Shown here piece by piece: positions 9,145-53,678 of a DNA stretch of 64,000 bases; within the stretch, counting starts at the first letter, position 1; every line of letters starts with the position of its first letter. The position numbers and the translations under genes are program-made. Origin of the DNA: a phage. The stretch is from the sequence record NC_111505.1; one strand, written 5' to 3'. The notes beneath the pieces are model-generated. The model was not told where the DNA came from, ran no database searches, and saw only the letters and a program-made list of their open reading frames with translations.

Positions 9145-9173
9145 TTGACACAACGCTTCAGCTATAGTATTAT
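9145..9173 (+). promoter_or_regulatory. Sigma70-like promoter TTGACA-N17-TATTAT
   Basis: Consensus -35 and near-consensus -10; followed by hairpin AAGAGAGA..TCTCTCTT (9182-9207) and SD AAGGAG. Confidence 0.6.
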
Positions 9174-9267
9174 TGTTTTCAAAGAGAGATGGTTGTTATT
9201 CTCTCTTCCTTAAAAGGAGCACGTTATGCAAATTTAAATCACTGGCAACGTAGAAATCACTGAAGGT

Positions 9268-9543
9268 ATGGTGTCTTTCATTTCCCACAAAATGTCTAAG
9301 CTGGAGCGTTTGCACCCCTCTGCCAACTATGCACGTGTGAGTGTAAAAGTTGAAAATGATCACCAGGAAGTCATGGCTTTTATTTTTGACAATTCTGGGA
9401 AAGAAGTTATCGCCAAAGCTAAAGGTAGCGATGCTTACGAGGCAACTGACCGTATGGTGGATGTTGCAGCACGCCAGTTGGCTAAATGCGGTGGAAAGAA
9501 AGGTAAGGGAAAAGGTAAAGTAAAGATTGACTTTTGGGATTGA
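9268..9543 (+). CDS. hpf: Ribosome hibernation factor (HPF/RaiA, S30AE family)-like, N-terminally disrupted
   Basis: KLE..., V.VKVE, ...G.D.Y.A.D...D.AARQL.K match HPF/RaiA; the homologous frame starts at ATG 9226 after SD AAGGAG but has TAA at codon 4 (9235-9237); track ORF starts at internal Met 9268. Confidence 0.45.
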   Translation: MVSFISHKMSKLERLHPSANYARVSVKVENDHQEVMAFIFDNSGKEVIAKAKGSDAYEATDRMVDVAARQLAKCGGKKGKGKGKVKIDFWD

Positions 9544-9552
9544 GGTGCTACA

Positions 9553-9654
9553 ATGGGTATAATTAAGAAATTAGTCCCAAATGTAGAGATTGCATGCTTT
9601 GAAATTATGTTTGCAATCGCAGTTGTAGTTAATGTGTTAGGTTACGGCTATTAA
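9553..9654 (+). CDS. candidate 33-aa hydrophobic peptide
   Basis: ATG with GAGGTG SD; MGIIKKLVPNVEIACFEIMFAIAVVVNVLGYGY. Confidence 0.3.
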   Translation: MGIIKKLVPNVEIACFEIMFAIAVVVNVLGYGY

Positions 9655-14388: not shown

Positions 14389-14490
14389 ATGGAATACGCA
14401 ATGAAAACATTGTCCGAGGTTTTGGTGGTGATCCTGATGATCATTACGTCCATAGCGGCTGTTGCCGGAATACTCACAGGTGGAACATGA
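14389..14490 (+). CDS. candidate 33-aa hydrophobic peptide
   Basis: MEYAMKTLSEVLVVILMIITSIAAVAGILTGGT downstream of the 14340 promoter; weak SD. Confidence 0.3.
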   Translation: MEYAMKTLSEVLVVILMIITSIAAVAGILTGGT

Positions 14491-14651
14491 CCAACACACA
14501 TGCACCTAAAGAGACATCTGAAGAAGCGACCGCAGAGAAAAACTTCAATTCTGAGGATTCTCTATCTCCGTCCCAGGTGGACCCTGAGGCTAATGACCTG
14601 ACGTGGGAGGACATCATAGCCATCTGGTTCTCTATCATGCCTGAGAACTAA
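14487..14651 (+). CDS. candidate small acidic protein (54 aa)
   Basis: ATG overlaps the previous stop (ATGA); in frame with track ORF 14340-14651; - strand ORF 14229-14501 is an alternative. Confidence 0.3.
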   Translation: MTNTHAPKETSEEATAEKNFNSEDSLSPSQVDPEANDLTWEDIIAIWFSIMPEN

Positions 14652-14795
14652 GAGTTCAGAGGTGGCAGACTATGAAGCACCGAGCCCACATAAGTTTATC
14701 ATGCTAAAGCATGGCCTGAAGAGGCAAACGTATATAAATTCCAGTGCATTGGAACGTATAACCCTGTTCACACTCTCATTTCCAGAGGAGATTTT

Positions 14796-15011
14796 ATGAA
14801 GATAGAAATATTTGGTGGAGCTGACAACACTCGTGGCCTGATTTACCTTGAATTCGATGAATCATACCTGCCAGAGGTGTTAAATATAGACTCTGTTGCT
14901 GAGGCTTTGGGAGTAAACCCTAAAGAACTCCACTCTTGTGCTGAGATCGATGGTTGGGAAGAGACCATGAACATTGATTTCAGTGAAGTAGAGGATGAAC
15001 CGCTGGACTGA
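14796..15011 (+). CDS. small acidic protein, MKIEIF paralog family
   Basis: ATG with AGAGGAGA SD. Confidence 0.55.
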   Translation: MKIEIFGGADNTRGLIYLEFDESYLPEVLNIDSVAEALGVNPKELHSCAEIDGWEETMNIDFSEVEDEPLD

Positions 15012-15359
15012 CACACAATTAGCTGCCAGGCTAAAGTGCTGGAAGCACCTATAACACATCTTTCAACTAAATTTCCTACCACCACAATCACTTACCTCCC
15101 ACACATGACTGTTTGCTTGTTTAGTGAGCAGTCATGCCTTGACATTCTTGCCTATCCTGATAAAATTAAGTTCTTCTCTTTTCTTTTACCGAGTAATTCG
15201 GGTTTTCTGTTCTCTTCGGTTTGAAGGGGTATGGAGATACACCTGAGTGAACAGGGTGAACAACCGAACAGTTGGCTATGGCATTAGCATGGCGAAGCGG
15301 ACGGGTGACGAAAGAGGGGCCGGAGGACACCAGTCACTGCCATATGGTATATGGGTGAT

Positions 15360-15925
15360 AACCTGAAGAGTCTGAATAAGTGTTTAAGTACCAGTCAGAG
15401 GAAAAGGTGAATGGTAGCCGAAGGGGGAGGGGGGTTTCTTGTATCTTTAATTTGTATATTTTATATACACTTGTAAACCAATTTCATCTGAATCTGTTTA
15501 CCACACAAAGTGGATAAAGTCAAATATTCCCTATTAAACTTGAATTATTTATAGAAAATACCACAACACCACTTAAGTCTTTGATTTTACACACAAATCT
15601 TACAAATATCTTACCTCCATATTTAACATACCTGTAACATATTCCATACTCTACCTGCCTGGTCAATTTACCCACCACATTCTCCACATTTTCCCTTCCT
15701 GTACTACCCCTGCCCCGCCGGGAGTCCCGTCATATCTGGCTTTCCAGCAAATATCACACCCACAAATATCATCACCTGAAGAGTGATTCATCCTATAATA
15801 CCTGCCTTACCTGAAGAGCGCTCCATACCCCACGTAAATTTTTTAATTGACCCCCTGCCCCGCCGGAGGGGTTGGCTTTTCCCACACAGGCCTGAAGAGT
15901 CAGCCAGAAATATCTGAAGGGGGTC
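15360..15925. repeat. Dispersed CCTGAAGAG motif (5 copies) plus two CCCTGCCCCGCCGG copies
   Basis: Copies near 15362, 15777, 15812, 15892, 15914; GC-rich direct repeats near 15708 and 15852; irregular spacing as for protein-binding sites. Confidence 0.5.
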
Positions 15926-16096
15926 CAGTTCTGCCACGATTTTGACCTGACCTACAGGAGCGCTGCCAGGCGGACGAAATGGGAATACTTCTCATTCTTA
16001 TAACAATTCTCAAATATCAAGGCAGTGAGGCAAATTAATAGGCGAGGCCGTTCACACAGTGGCGCAACATTTGCAAGCTATTTTGTGTGGATGAAT

Positions 16097-16130
16097 GAGA
16101 ATACTTATCATTGTGAGAATCGTTATCATT
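16097..16130. repeat. Tandem 16-mer GAGAATNNTTATCATT (2 copies, 2-nt spacer)
   Basis: 16097-16112 and 16115-16130; the same 16-mer recurs at 27733-27748 and 27869-27884. Confidence 0.55.
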
Positions 16131-16534
16131 ACGGGCAATTTAACATAATACCCATTATGCGCACCACTGGCGATACATACATGGATTGATAACATGGGTT
16201 ACTGTTTACGCATATAACAATTGTATTTCTTATTATTTGTGGGGGATATAGTTAGCGACCAATAGATTAGATATTAACCTGCAGACTTCTGACCGTCCAG
16301 ACGTCTAAACGCCCACACAACAAGGGTTATACATACACTCCTGAATGTAAACAGGGCAGCAAAAATGCTACCATACCAGATTGTAAATTTTCCATGCAGC
16401 ACTTGACAAAGAGGAGAAAAACTTGTCTGACACAATGTCACACAATATGCCATAATCTGACACCTTATACACTTTCGACACAATAACGACTGTTATTATT
16501 TCATGTTTCATTGTTCACGTGCAGATTGTTCCCA

Positions 16535-16890
16535 CATAGACTGTTTACGCCCGGATAGTTTACACCTTGACAGTTTACACAAAGATGATAAGCCATGACA
16601 TTCGTTTGCATGATAACACCCTTGAGACGAGGGCCATGCTCCCGAGTTTAACAATTAACAAGATAACAATTGACAGGCCGACAATTAACAAGTTAACAAT
16701 ATATGACATAATATAAAAGCAGGGCAACTATTAGCAGATCATAGTTGCCTTGCTTATTATGTCATGATTAACTGAATACAAGGCAACTATGATCTGATCA
16801 ATAGTTTGCAGGCAAACTATCACGGGGGTGATGGTTACTGCTTTTATATTATGTCGCGACTCCGTCGCGCCATGACATTCGTTTGCATAG
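16535..16890. repeat. Cluster of direct repeats and palindromes (operator/iteron-like)
   Basis: Three (C/T)(T/A)GTTTACRC repeats at 16541-16582; CATGACATTCGTTTGCAT twice (16594, 16871); ACAATTAACAAG twice; two palindromes GCAACTAT-N9/10-ATAGTT(T)GC with GATC cores (16724-16748, 16783-16809). Confidence 0.5.
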
Positions 16891-17499
16891 TTGCCTTATT
16901 GTTACAGGTAAAACAATTACATTGTTAACTATTTCTTATCTTTCTCTTAGTCATCTAATGATTCCAGTCAGTATAGTTATGTACAGTAAACATTAGACGA
17001 CTAAAGATTTCTCTGATTATAGTAACCTATCGTGACAATTTCAGACTGTTTACGAAAAATGTTGACACCTGGGCGGGTTTATGTTATGCAGTTTACACGA
17101 ATAATTATTTCATACAGGTATTGACTATTCCGTTATTCTGTGGTTGGAATAAATACTTTGCAGGCTATAGAATGGTGTGCGTACGTGAATTCTGAGATCT
17201 GGCGGCTATAGTTACACCCGATTTTTCGCGCAGAACACGCTTTTTGGTTTGTGTAAGTGTATGACTTATAAAGATTTTTAGTTGTTGACACGGTATTGAA
17301 GATGTGCATCAGGTTAAATTTTGTGCAATAACTGCATTACGTGCAATTTTGGGAGAGAAAACGGGTAAAAATAGCACCGCTACCACACAATGAAAGGTTA
17401 TGCAATAGCTATTTTACATGTATATTTGTACAGTGTGCGGGATTGATGGCTCGTCAATTATTCCACTTGTCAGGTAGGGCCGTTTATGGTATGGGGAAG

Positions 17500-17529
17500 A
17501 GCAGACAAAAAGAAAGGGGCCTAAGCCCC
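17500..17529 (-). terminator. Rho-independent terminator at the end of the - strand transcription unit
   Basis: GGGGC-TTAG-GCCCC hairpin followed on the - strand by TTTCTTTTTGTC. Confidence 0.6.
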
Positions 17530-37126: not shown

Positions 37127-37480
37127 TTAGTGACAATCGCCCCAGTTACGACCACACAAGTATTCACCTGTGATCTGGAACGGAACGCCCATCATTTTAG
37201 AAGCTTGCCAGAAGCAATGCACCACCATTTCACCCACAGGGCTCCAGATAAGTTCAAGCTTTCCGTCATCGTTCAGAATAGGATCGTACACCGTGTTTCC
37301 GTCTCTGTCAACCACTTCGTTTCCGTTCTCATCCTTGCGTGCCTTTTTGTACTTATGACCGTCAAACACATGAAGTTTGGCCTCCTGTTCTGCCTTAAAT
37401 GCTTCCAGTTCTTCAATTGTGTCGAAGGTGTACACAGTCTTATACTTAGGCGTGTCAGGGACTTGAAGTTGGTACTCATC
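37127..37480 (-). CDS. DNA polymerase I-family (family A), 3' exon (motif C HDE to C-terminal ...NWGDCH)
   Basis: Frame begins DEYQLQ... directly after the intron's terminal G; ends with a family-A-like C-terminus (...NWGDCH); no independent SD or ATG (track 'M' is TTG). Confidence 0.6.
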   Translation of the reverse strand, partial: DEYQLQVPDTPKYKTVYTFDTIEELEAFKAEQEAKLHVFDGHKYKKARKDENGNEVVDRDGNTVYDPILNDDGKLELIWSPVGEMVVHCFWQASKMMGVPFQITGEYLCGRNWGDCH

Positions 37481-37756
37481 CAATAGTTCAGGTAGGTCGT
37501 TAAGCTACCCCGCACCATTACGTGCATAGCCATACGTTTTCACGTAGGATCGGACCATCTCATATTCCTATGATAAGCAACCACAGGAATCCTCCCATTT
37601 CGACCGCACTTGCTGGTCTACTTCCTTTCGGAATGGCCTCTGAGCGTTCGCTCTTTTGAGCGCTTCGTTGCGGATTACCTTGCCATAAGGTTTAGGCTTC
37701 CCGCAGTTAAAGAGGTTATTCGACATAGATTACTCTATGAAGCCACAATGTTATTT
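37481..37756 (-). mobile_element. ORF-less group I intron (IA2-like) interrupting the DNA polymerase gene at motif C
   Basis: 276 nt between pol ORF stop and 3' exon; 5' exon ends ...CAU (U), intron ends ...CUAUUG (G); GUGG near intron 5' end can pair with exon CCAU (P1, G-U at splice site); 3' part ...GGGGUAGCUUAACGACCUACCUGAACUAUUG resembles the T4 td intron 3' end as I recall it. Confidence 0.65.
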
Positions 37757-40700
37757 ATGGTAATAAATAATACGACGAACACCTTCATCGTACCACCCAC
37801 GCTTCACCATTTGGTGGTGCATGAGTATCCCAACTAAGTCACACAACGATGCACCACCATTTTGTTGGTATGCATTAAGTAAAGAGTGTTTAGATCGAGT
37901 CCAGATGGCATGACCATCAAAAGAGTAGATAAACTTCTTACCTGTTGCTTCCCAGAATTTCTCCAGATCCTCTTTGCGCCCCTTAAGACCAGGGTTGGCA
38001 TCCCAAAGCGCATCGATTACCTTTTGCCCTAACTCTGGGGAGATATCCAGCATGTCTGCAACTTTATCTTTTTGTGCCCCGTACATAACACCGTACGTGA
38101 CAGGCTTACCATCGTTACGGGAAATCTCCTTGCCTGCTACAGAAGAGTAAGCTTTGGCGTTATTACAGTTACCGCACACTGCCACTTTACCATTCCTTCT
38201 CACAATGATTGCTCCAGAAGGGACGGTAACGCAATAAACCAAAGAACCACTCACCTCGACAGACTCTTTAGATAGTGTCAGCAACCCTGCTCTCTGTTTG
38301 CTACCAATCGTGATTCTGTGCTGTACGGAACGACCTTTTTTGTGAATCGCCACCGTATTATTCCGTAAACCACACTGAGTAGCCAGCGCAGACACAACCT
38401 CTACAGATTTCTTCCTGCACTCGGCCTGAGAGTAGTAGGCAACTTTTCCACCTTCGGAAGATACCCACCCGTCCCAGTTAGATAAAGAAGCTATAAACAG
38501 GTTTTTAGATTCTTTATCAAGGTCCATCAGGTTGTAGGTGAAATCCTTATTGCTGTCCAAAAACTCAAATACCCAGGACGGAACGTGGAATTGGAACCTT
38601 CTCGCCAGTAAGCCCCCTTTTGTGGTTTTCCCGCCCTGCTCTACATAACTAAGGCTTAGAGCAGAAAAAGTATCTAAAAGCGTTGCAACTTTTCTGCCCT
38701 TCCCGACCTGAATCCTGCACACGATGCTGCCGTCCTTATTTGTATGCAAGTGTCCATCATCGTGAATAGCAATAAGCAAATTAATCTGGGCAGGAGATAA
38801 GGTTGTATTCCCATAAAACTCTGCCGCATGGATAAACCTTCTTCCTGAATTAGACCCTTTACCTGCTTTCAGGTCTTTTGCCAAATCTTCAAACAATTTA
38901 TTGCTTCTGTGATCCACGGTCAGCATCCTGTGTTGATCTGTAACCATAAAATCCACACCGCTGTTGTGGAAATGATACATATCCCCACAATAACCACGCT
39001 TAACGTAATTTAATGGTGTAACAAGGTTCATCGACGAGGTGTTGTGATCGTACTGGAACACTTGTGTTCCCGGATCAAGATCTTCAAACCTCACCCACCC
39101 TTTCTCCGTGAGAATTTGTGTATCTCCTGAATAACAGTGTGCATCGCCGTTACTTACAACATCATAATACAAGCCGTTGTCGAACTCAAAGGCACCCCAA
39201 GCCCCGATAAGCTGCTCTAAGTTGGACCCGTCAATACCGATCTCAAAGTATCCTGGAGGAACGCCCCACAGACTACGCATCTCTTTACCCATAACCACTT
39301 TAGGAGATGGTTTAGGCATGTTTGCACAAATACTGTGTTTCTGTCTGGAAGTGTTTGTCAATCCAGAACTTTTAGCAGGAAGCTTGTGGTCAATCTTCAG
39401 ACGTGGATGATTAAGAAGACCAGTATCAACCTTATCCTCCTTGATTGGATCAAGTACCGATCTACGGTTTCGCAAGGATAACCACAAGACGATATCTTTA
39501 GCCATCTCTCCGTTCAACTTTTCAAGATTCGGACATAGGTGTCCAAACGTATCTTTCAGTTGCGGAGAAGTAATAAGCGCTCTGGCTTTTCTACGTATCT
39601 TCCCAAACACTTCCTTTTTAATCCTTTCTGAGTTAGGGAAGCTTCGGAACTTGTGCACGGTTGTCTGAAACTTAGCATCAGTTTTGTTCCAGAAGTTGAT
39701 AATTAGGTCACAATACTCTGACTCTAAAAGCTCGTCCATATATGCATATACTCGTGCATCAACATCAGCATCAGGCAGAGCTTTCTTCTTGCTGTCCTTG
39801 GTTACATCTTTAGTTCTCCACATTGTTGGGAGCCAACCAGCGCTGATCAAATATCGCTTAATATCGTCCTGGTTGCTGATCTTCATAGGTATCTTGCAGT
39901 CAGGCATCCGCTTCTGCTGCAGATCACTTATTGCCTGATCCATTAGTTCTTTAGGTAAAGGATGTGGTGTCGAGGTACCTTTAATATACCCCCTTAAGAA
40001 ATCAGCCATCTTATCGGGGTCTTTGCAGCCCATCTCTTCACACCATTTTATCCCCATTTTGCTGACATCTCCTGTGGAGGTAAAGGCTCGCTTAGGTGGG
40101 GCTTTGAATTCTAAAGCACTCATGTCCACAGGATAGCCAAGCTTGTCTTTTAACCATTTCCAACCGTTATTAGAGATTGTCCCATCTTGGTTAAACGGCT
40201 TTTCAGGGAACTTAGGCCGCTGAGACATTGATAGCTCTTTTAGAGGAAGTTGTGGTTCAACACGATCAGCGATCTCTTTCATCCACGCATCGCAGCGGTC
40301 ACGTAAAGCAATAGCCCCATCTATGTCGAAATACACACCCTGTCGAGCCTGCAGCTCCATCAGGAAATGCTGCAGCATGCCTCGGCGTAATGCATTCTTC
40401 CAGGTGATCTTCTTGAAGCCTTTCGGCTTCTCTTTGGCAGGATCGTACATAAAGTTCTGCATGTCAGATTTGCCGTAGAATACACCTTTTGATTCTGCTA
40501 CCAACTCCTTCCAGAGCAACTCCTGGATGATAACGTCCTCGAACACACGATCCACATACTTCCACAGCGGAAGCTCACGCCAGTCATCGATTTGAACTTT
40601 CTGGTTACCAAGGGCATAGCCCCATGCCATAAGGCCATGAGGCCCAACAGGTTGCATTTTCTTGGTAACTGGATTGAATACTGCGTCCGGACAACCTTTT

Positions 40701-41149
40701 GGCAAAGGGCGGTCAGGCCACAAGATTCGACTCATCGCCAACGTATCAAATAGATTAACTTGGTGGTCGTTGATAGTCCCCATGCATTTAGGATCACGGA
40801 ACATATCAAAATGAACACCGGATAATCTTTCCATCAGCATAAAGTCATAGCTGTAGCAGTTATGACAGTTCAAAGCCGTAGGTGACCAGTCTGAATTGCC
40901 TGTAAGCCAGCCTTCCAACTCTGAAAAATCTGCTATGCGAGCCTCAAAATCTTTATAAAGAGTTTTCTTTGCCAGAATAAAGTTCTTAGCCTTTTCTACA
41001 TCCTCTTCAGAGTAGTGTGTGCGGTCATTTAGAGGAAGGAACAGCATAAAACGGTTCTTATTCAGCTCTTTAAACAAACCGCAGTGATAATAAAGATCTG
41101 GATCTTCCAAAAGCCCGGAGGCCTCCAAGTCGAACGACCACATGCTCAT
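37757..41149 (-). CDS. DNA polymerase I-family (family A), 5' exon including 3'-5' exonuclease domain and an in-frame intein
   Basis: FDLEASGL (Exo I), motif A ...IGIDGSNLEQLI..., motif B ...KPVTYGVMYGAQ...; ATG 41149 with AGGAGA SD; ORF stops (...IIYYHK*) exactly where motif C is expected. Confidence 0.8.
38168..39136 (-). mobile_element. Intein (323 aa) with LAGLIDADG-like homing endonuclease domain, between pol motifs A and B
   Basis: Insert begins CYSGDTQIL (Hint block A), contains TDQH (block B), LLIAIHDDG and FIASLSNWDG (dodecapeptide-like), ends ...VAVCGN followed by +1 Cys; motif A and B are about 370 aa apart instead of about 45. Confidence 0.7.
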
Positions 41150-53065: not shown

Positions 53066-53323
53066 TCAGTCTACCTCTTCTTCTCGTTGCAGTTCAAGAT
53101 ACCCATAGGTCTGGATATCTTCAAGGGTGTGGAACTCCCCATCTGCAGCTAAGGCACGGACAACCTGGCATAGAGTTTTATAAGGTACTTTCTCCAAACC
53201 CAGATTCAGCGCAGGAAAAACCTTATCTAAGTCAACAAAATATACAAACTGTAGCTCACCAGTTTCAAAAGGCGTATCTTCGATAAACATCTTCTCGGCA
53301 TTAGTCAAGATCTGCACTTTCAT
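53066..53323 (-). CDS. hypothetical protein (85 aa)
   Basis: ATG with AGAGGGGG SD. Confidence 0.6.
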   Translation of the reverse strand: MKVQILTNAEKMFIEDTPFETGELQFVYFVDLDKVFPALNLGLEKVPYKTLCQVVRALAADGEFHTLEDIQTYGYLELQREEEVD

Positions 53324-53553
53324 TCTTCTACCCCCTCTTCTTTTTCTTCAGCATTAGTTTCAGTGCTACCCCACTCTGGAGTTTCCACCTCGACAGTAAA
53401 CTCACGCACTACACGGTAATTGCCCATGAAGCGCTCCACTTCTTCAAGGCTTATGGAGAGGCCATTGGCAACCAAGTCTGCAGCACCCTTCTCTACCAGG
53501 TAGTCCAGATTGGCTTCCAAGGCTTCAGGCTCAAACCCTGTCAATGCAATCAT
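53320..53553 (-). CDS. hypothetical acidic protein (77 aa)
   Basis: Track start is TTG 53592; ATG 53553 with AAGGGGAGGG SD. Confidence 0.5.
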   Translation of the reverse strand: MIALTGFEPEALEANLDYLVEKGAADLVANGLSISLEEVERFMGNYRVVREFTVEVETPEWGSTETNAEEKEEGVEE

Positions 53554-53678
53554 ATAACCCTCCCCTTCATCAAGGAGGGCAATACAGCCCAACTGATTTT
53601 CTTTAAAAAGCAGTGACCATCACTATTGATTGGTTGCTCATTGCAGTAAATAGCTGCACGATAAGTAACTTTAGACAT
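53550..53678 (-). CDS. candidate 42-aa protein
   Basis: ATG with strong SD TAAGGAGG; ATGA overlap with downstream gene. Confidence 0.3.
   Translation of the reverse strand: MSKVTYRAAIYCNEQPINSDGHCFLKKISWAVLPSLMKGRVI

Follow-up and report, generated by a model that had tools for sequence, protein, structure and literature searches.

Members of the HPF family sit in the decoding channel of the 30S subunit of vacant ribosomes, and a phage gene of this family that carries a stop at its fourth codon raises the question of whether the factor has been lost, whether it is still produced by an unusual route, or whether the stop exists only in the deposited sequence. The locus lies in a stretch of 64,000 nucleotides of phage record NC_111505.1, referred to here as the window. 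A sequence-only reading had placed a consensus promoter, a hairpin and a Shine–Dalgarno sequence ahead of an ATG at 9226, followed by a frame interrupted by TAA at 9235-9237 and otherwise continuing to 9543 with a Lys/Gly-rich tail, and it had named sequencing error, a recent pseudogene, and reinitiation or readthrough yielding a ribosome hibernation factor as possible explanations. All of these coordinates hold, and translation confirms the Lys/Gly-rich tail on an otherwise intact frame. The explanation favoured here, and considered rather probable, is a genuine null allele in which a single private G-to-T change at 9235 (GAA, Glu4, to TAA) inactivates the HPF gene. The features of the locus are the following.

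9145-9173, plus strand: sigma70-type early promoter (TTGACA at 9145-9150, 17-nt spacer, TATTAT at 9168-9173), matching the consensus at 11 of 12 positions
9183-9189 with 9200-9206, plus strand: 5'-terminal stem-loop of the transcript (AGAGAGA / UCUCUCU, 7 bp, 10-nt loop)
9214-9219, plus strand: Shine–Dalgarno sequence AAGGAG, -7.9 kcal/mol against the anti-Shine–Dalgarno sequence at the 16S 3' end, 5-6 nt before ATG 9226
9226-9237, plus strand: mini-ORF of three codons translated as sequenced (Met-Gln-Ile-stop), from direct reading and translation
9235-9237, plus strand: premature ochre codon TAA at codon 4, with a private T at 9235 where relatives have G, giving GAA (Glu)
9238-9543, plus strand: rest of the HPF-family frame, codons 5-105 and TGA (9541-9543), intact and equal to the FV3-type protein
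9268-9543, plus strand: longest open frame in the ORF listing, 91 aa from Met15, the sole in-frame restart candidate
9493-9540, plus strand: Lys/Gly-rich C-terminal tail, residues 90-105, GKKGKGKGKVKIDFWD
9553-9654, plus strand: conserved 33-aa gene of the same early-gene array, distinct from HPF (full-length match to PHROG 15151)

The orthologous promoter is annotated as P144 (sigma70-type) in the rV5 record, and the site is conserved in all relatives. The stem-loop at 9183-9206 is present in the MFE fold and in the centroid fold alike and may have a role in mRNA stability. In rV5/FV3-type alleles, AGAGGG / CCCTCT takes the place of the window stem, so that pairing is retained through changes on both sides, but the support from covariation is limited because only two stem allele types occur. 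Downstream, the 33-aa gene has its own Shine–Dalgarno sequence (-6.9 kcal/mol), and promoter-like sites are found at 9527-9563. A few other assemblies show variation or a frameshift in the C-terminal tail of the HPF protein (P0003). Moreover, T9235 converts ATTGAAAT into the 8-bp palindrome ATTTAAAT at 9232-9239, the recognition sequence of SwaI, a site that the G allele lacks; this is probably a coincidence.

Megablast assigns the window to the FV3-like Vequintavirus group, i.e., rV5-like myophages of E. coli, with approximately 96% identity to FV3, SYGMH1, and EPFV3-03/2025; the window's own sequence is not part of the phage collection searched. Orthologs of the HPF locus include rV5 gp139/ORF144 (ABI79209 / YP_002003641) and FV3 ORF136, and the protein matches PHROG 12469 over residues 1-105 of 105 (236.6 bits). 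The genes flanking it are the same in SYGMH1, rV5, EduardKellenberger, FV3, EPFV3, WM, and 10 long contigs; these neighbours are small early genes, the order of which is conserved as in rV5, SYGMH1, and the BASEL phages. When codon 4 is taken as Glu, the proteins of FV3, EPFV3-03/2025, and VB-EcoM-WM are 100% identical to that of the window. At the nucleotide level, the window gene is a mosaic, the 5' half being identical to alleles of the SYGMH1 type and the 3' half to those of the FV3 type, while the window as a whole contains no homologs of SYGMH1_39 (adenine methyltransferase), SYGMH1_58 (endonuclease VII), or SYGMH1_79. This mosaicism, together with gene content, points to frequent recombination among co-circulating Vequintaviruses.

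The gene is not new. Its annotation differs from record to record, appearing as ‘sigma 54 modulation factor’, ‘RaiA’, or ‘ribosome hibernation factor’, and the name ‘RaiA’ in many of these records is a label at the level of the family that does not imply orthology. The phage HPF has already been described by Mizuno et al. (2019, Nat Commun 10:752; PMC6375957), who listed it in rV5, FV3, and related phages. When rV5 HPF was expressed in E. coli, that is, outside infection, it was present in the lysate and absent from salt-washed 70S and 100S ribosomes, and the formation of 100S particles was unaffected; the peptides GSDAYEATDR and VENDHQEVMAFIFDNSGK of the protein were seen in that work (PMC6375957). 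A search of the functional literature on phage HPF after 2019 returned nothing beyond this study.

Membership of the family is well established by profile searches. If Glu is placed at codon 4, Pfam Ribosomal_S30AE (PF02482), the profile whose use was proposed in the sequence-only reading, gives 48.3 bits (cutoff 23.7), and NCBIfam TIGR00741 gives 45.9 (cutoff 40.9). These scores bear out the proposed HPF/RaiA homology of a frame with a stop at codon 4. The 91-aa ORF alone still exceeds the Pfam cutoff with 37.3 bits, the loss of the N-terminal residues up to Met15 costing 11 bits. The best-scoring model is NF007780, the equivalog of the E. coli-type short HPF, where the score of 55.8 bits stays under the cutoff of 125, while NF007654, the RaiA/YfiA equivalog, gives 17.6 bits (cutoff 158). 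Since both scores fall below the equivalog cutoffs, the phage protein is strictly an ortholog of neither HPF nor RaiA. The nearest solved sequence is that of E. coli HPF (2rql, E = 5.5e-12), which aligns end to end, residues 1-89 on 1-89, in agreement with the collinearity claimed earlier. The fold was modelled with AF2 on the rV5 ortholog from a 19-sequence alignment, the model thus representing the full-length protein and not the truncated product of the window. It has a mean pLDDT of 83 and a β-α-β-β-β-α fold (β1 2-7, α1 13-29, β2 33-43, β3 46-55, β4 60-67, α2 70-89), followed by a predicted disordered tail at residues 92-105 (pLDDT <50). Foldseek returned V. cholerae HPF 4hei (TM 0.94) and E. 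coli HPF, both in 6h4n, a structure of the 100S ribosome, and in 2rql, as the best matches, with TM values of 0.86-0.94. By profile and by fold, the phage protein is a member of the HPF/YfiA family.

The segment that contains the stop is the one that the family keeps most constant. The motif MQIxITG.NxExT is common across the HPF family, and the two phage HPF lineages agree best in their N-terminal 16 residues, of which 15 are identical (against 64% identity overall; P0004). A word-indexed protein search found 5 clusters only, and an exhaustive HMMER search gave 22 matches at E ≤ 1e-3, among which a single other cluster exceeds 50% identity (P0004, 65%). No closer cellular donor was found in this exhaustive search, in which cellular relatives show 45% identity or less.

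The comparison with related phage genomes, also proposed in the sequence-only reading, gives a uniform result, with GAA in every relative examined and a stop that is private to the window. An 86-nt query spanning codon 4 retrieved 87 phage records without a single exact match, the best differing by one mismatch. Codon 4 is GAA in all 20 independent records or contigs that were read base by base, and among the fetched loci GAA occurs 26 times and TAA once; SYGMH1, rV5, EduardKellenberger, FV3, EPFV3, and WM all carry GAA. Three independent assemblies (L015, L016, and L018, from ERR2855864, ENA ERZ28599095 scaffold_14, and SRR34436968) match the window gene at every one of its 318 nt but position 10, where they have G. 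A metagenome scan added two contigs, both with GAA, and an exact look-up of the upstream-neighbour protein led to long contigs from 12 further samples, each with an intact gene, called at 105 aa in all but one of them and at 104 aa in L029. Overall, the gene is intact in more than 100 orthologs, the relatives with an intact copy numbering roughly 130, and pN/pS is 0.044 among 11 distinct intact alleles, which indicates strong purifying selection. An exact-pattern scan of IMG/VR around codon 4 yielded zero matches, and an exact look-up of the 91-aa product, performed to find other genomes with TAA, returned two short contigs only. These independent Logan contigs (L011 and L012, from ERR3179225 and SRR27536176) both start exactly at the Met15 ATG (window position 9268) and, therefore, are uninformative on codon 4; downstream of this start, L012 is 99.3% identical to the window.

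Since all relatives carry GAA and the gene is under strong purifying selection, the TAA is either a private, very recent G>T change or a miscall, and the two alternatives of sequencing error and recent pseudogene named at the outset both stand, the lesion being one private base in a gene otherwise 100% identical to three assemblies. If the base call or the consensus were wrong, the phage would truly carry GAA and make the normal 105-aa protein, with TAA found in the deposited sequence only, a reading that we regard as possible but on the unlikely side. It agrees with the one-base difference from three otherwise identical alleles and with the integrity of the gene in every relative under such selection, given which a natural null allele would be unexpected a priori. 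It also agrees with two further private lesions of the window. At 53320-53678 (minus strand), a conserved 118-aa hypothetical gene, the homolog of SYGMH1_28, is split into ORFs of 42 and 90 aa by a frameshift in a homopolymer, the coding-strand run at 53605-53609 being T5 instead of T6; the longer run is found in 59 of 59 phage records and 10 of 10 contigs, where the gene is intact, and a change in homopolymer length is a typical type of error. At 14649 (plus strand; gene at about 14487-14672), a second private GAA-to-TAA change, again G>T, affects codon 55 of a 62-aa hypothetical protein, the SYGMH1_94 homolog, and trims only the last 8 residues. Both lesions may point to a small number of consensus errors, and an error stays plausible in view of three private disruptive lesions within 64 kb and of the roughly 130 relatives in which the gene is intact. 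Against it stands the behaviour of the remaining private differences. When the window was compared with 32 relative loci, 159 clean private sites were obtained, 97 synonymous, 32 missense, 2 nonsense, and 28 noncoding; 74% of the private changes are synonymous, whereas about 25% would be expected for random errors. Moreover, a private length is seen in just 1 of the 416 homopolymer runs that could be compared, and neither these runs nor the classes of private sites support an error-prone long-read or homopolymer-biased assembly. Substitution errors are rare in a finished consensus, and direct reading places 9235 outside homopolymers longer than 3 and outside Dam (GATC) and Dcm (CCWGG) motifs. 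As judged from the sequence, the private differences are mostly genuine divergence filtered by selection and not random error. Of the 124 annotated proteins of SYGMH1, the window has 103 in intact, full-length form, and the sole early nonsense codon is that of HPF. The assembly is generally accurate, and a real mutation is therefore favoured. As a separate observation, private plus-strand G>T changes at 9235, 11753, 13037, and 14649, within 9.2-14.7 kb, are non-synonymous in 4 of 4 cases, while private changes elsewhere are mostly synonymous transitions; these four sites may be recent, unfiltered mutations in a small cluster, or they may be artefactual.

Under the favoured explanation of a genuine null allele, the consensus sigma70 promoter would remain available to the host RNA polymerase and ribosomes would still have a strong Shine–Dalgarno sequence and AUG 9226 on which to load, but translation would end after Met-Gln-Ile and no significant functional factor would be made. 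An open reading frame for the whole HPF domain is not present, with TAA coming after 3 codons and the longest ORF being without β1. Most likely, the mutation is genuine and very recent and has been tolerated as HPF would be accessory under the conditions of propagation. The dispensability of HPF is plausible in view of the negative ribosome result obtained with rV5 HPF (PMC6375957) and of the altered forms found in other assemblies (P0003, P0005, and the 104-aa call in L029).

If the TAA is real, a hibernation-factor-like protein could in principle still be made, either by a restart at AUG 9268, giving 91 aa, or by readthrough or suppression of the ochre codon, giving the full-length protein, but we judge this quite improbable. 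The downstream frame is fully intact, the 91-aa ORF passes the Pfam cutoff, AUG 9268 lies only 31 nt past the stop, lacI of E. coli and rIIB of T4 offer classical examples of restarts behind an early nonsense codon, and rV5-like phages have a tRNA-Tyr that is one anticodon change short of an ochre suppressor. An intact frame is expected anyway, however, because the mutation is so recent, with zero other differences from L015, L016, and L018. The Shine–Dalgarno sequence of AUG 9268 reaches -3.5 kcal/mol at a spacing of 0-1 nt, against -7.9 kcal/mol at 5 nt for AUG 9226, and, according to the model, the Met15 product would be without β1 (residues 2-7), one of the four strands of the sheet, and would also lack the beginning of α1; a stable fold of this product is doubtful because the missing segment is the most conserved of the family. 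The stop is also absent from every relative, and E. coli terminates at UAA more efficiently than at the other stop codons. A non-AUG restart at AUC 9238 was considered and rejected, since its Shine–Dalgarno sequence would be 17 nt off, AUC being a very poor initiator codon. The tRNAs of rV5 are six (Arg, Tyr, Thr, Met, Pro, and Ser) and include no suppressor (PMC3606486); no tRNA genes were found within the 64-kb window, the rV5-like tRNA cluster lying outside it. The absence of the stop in relatives, the weak and misplaced Shine–Dalgarno sequence, and the loss of β1 thus all weigh against the proposal of the sequence-only reading that reinitiation or readthrough gives a working factor. A real TAA combined with a working ribosome-binding protein, be it the 91-aa form lacking β1 or a full-length form made by an ochre-suppressing variant of the phage tRNA-Tyr encoded outside the window, is accordingly given a very slim chance, whereas a more modest version, namely that the phage is a naturally HPF-null but viable Vequintavirus, near-isogenic to relatives that are HPF-positive (L016 and L018), is more likely. 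Finally, the stop might be a conserved regulatory feature that controls HPF expression by readthrough, frameshifting, or a leader peptide. The strong upstream promoter and Shine–Dalgarno sequence and the A/T-rich context AAAUUUAAAU are all that agrees with such programmed recoding, which merits next to no credence and is excluded because the stop is not conserved, occurring in no relative, with GAA in all other sequences examined. The HPF frame is the zero frame and, thus, frameshifting cannot restore HPF; a frameshift rescue is likewise rejected on direct reading, in which the +1 frame reaches TAG within a few codons. No conserved structure was found downstream of the stop, where the z-score of the fold is -0.04.

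The case is one of either an ordinary knockout specific to this strain or a wrong base call and not of a new mechanism of translation, and it matters little in itself, since it concerns a published phage gene with a private one-base lesion or error. Nevertheless, gene callers would annotate the 91-aa ORF (9268-9543) as ‘ribosome hibernation factor / RaiA’, and the genome should not be counted as HPF-competent unless base 9235 is checked. If the mutation is real and the isolate viable, HPF would be dispensable for propagation, consistent with the negative ribosome-binding result for the rV5 protein, and the phage would offer a natural knockout in which the role of phage HPF could be probed, e.g., in stationary-phase hosts.

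Several further features were noticed elsewhere in the window. The ORF of a family A DNA polymerase (37751-41149, minus strand) encodes 1132 aa, against 809 aa in SYGMH1, and carries an in-frame insertion of 323 aa after residue 671 (about 38165-39136), which starts with CYSGDTQILT, ends with VCGN, and is followed by Cys. This insertion is probably an intein with a homing-endonuclease-like middle, and it scores 23.1 bits on Pfam Hint_2, under the cutoff of 28.4. Right at the 3' end of this ORF, Rfam places a group I intron (RF00028; 37531-37766, minus strand; 64.7 bits against a gathering score of 50), after which comes a 118-aa ORF (37127-37483, minus strand) that is probably the second exon of the polymerase, since some relatives have a single polymerase of 925 aa; in that case, the polymerase gene would contain a group I intron in addition to an intein. 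In addition, a stretch of 2.5 kb free of ORFs is located at about 15000-17500, where the genes switch from rightward to leftward, and the corresponding stretch is ORF-free in the rV5 paper too. It includes three iteron-like repeats of ACAATTAACAAG.TAACAAT with 15-nt spacing (16651-16700), nested perfect inverted repeats of 18 nt (16705-16855), and duplicated 20-mers, along with a dip in GC content and a local change in GC skew. No Rfam family reaches the gathering score in this stretch, which is possibly a replication origin.

Among known systems, the closest are the rV5 gp139/ORF144 and FV3 ORF136 genes, which share with the window gene the promoter, the 5' hairpin, the Shine–Dalgarno sequence, the neighbours, and the length of 105 codons; with codon 4 as Glu, the window protein is 98% identical to that of rV5 and 100% identical to that of FV3. 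They differ in codon 4 itself, GAA in both phages and TAA in the window, which as sequenced encodes no full-length product. The early ochre mutants of lacI and T4 rIIB that support restarts resemble the present case in having an early nonsense codon with an in-frame AUG no more than about 30 nt behind it, but here the Shine–Dalgarno context is poor and the lost N-terminus is a core β-strand and not a dispensable segment.

E. coli RaiA/YfiA (protein Y; 4v8i, 1n3g) belongs to the same Pfam family and shares the fold and a C-terminal extension past the core domain, which in YfiA blocks the binding of RMF. However, its sequence similarity to the phage protein is much weaker (NF007654 17.6 vs 158; E = 0.35 in the PDB search), and the phage tail is basic and Gly-rich and not YfiA-like. 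The E. coli short HPF (YhbH; 2rql, 4v8h, 6h4n) is a better counterpart, collinear over residues 1-89 with about 40% identity and with the same β-α-β-β-β-α fold (TM 0.86-0.90 to the rV5 ortholog model), and by homology the 30S decoding channel would be the expected binding site of the phage protein. Unlike the phage protein, E. coli HPF has no equivalent of the 16-residue Lys/Gly-rich tail and, unlike E. coli HPF, the rV5 protein was missing from the ribosome fractions and left 100S formation unaltered (PMC6375957).
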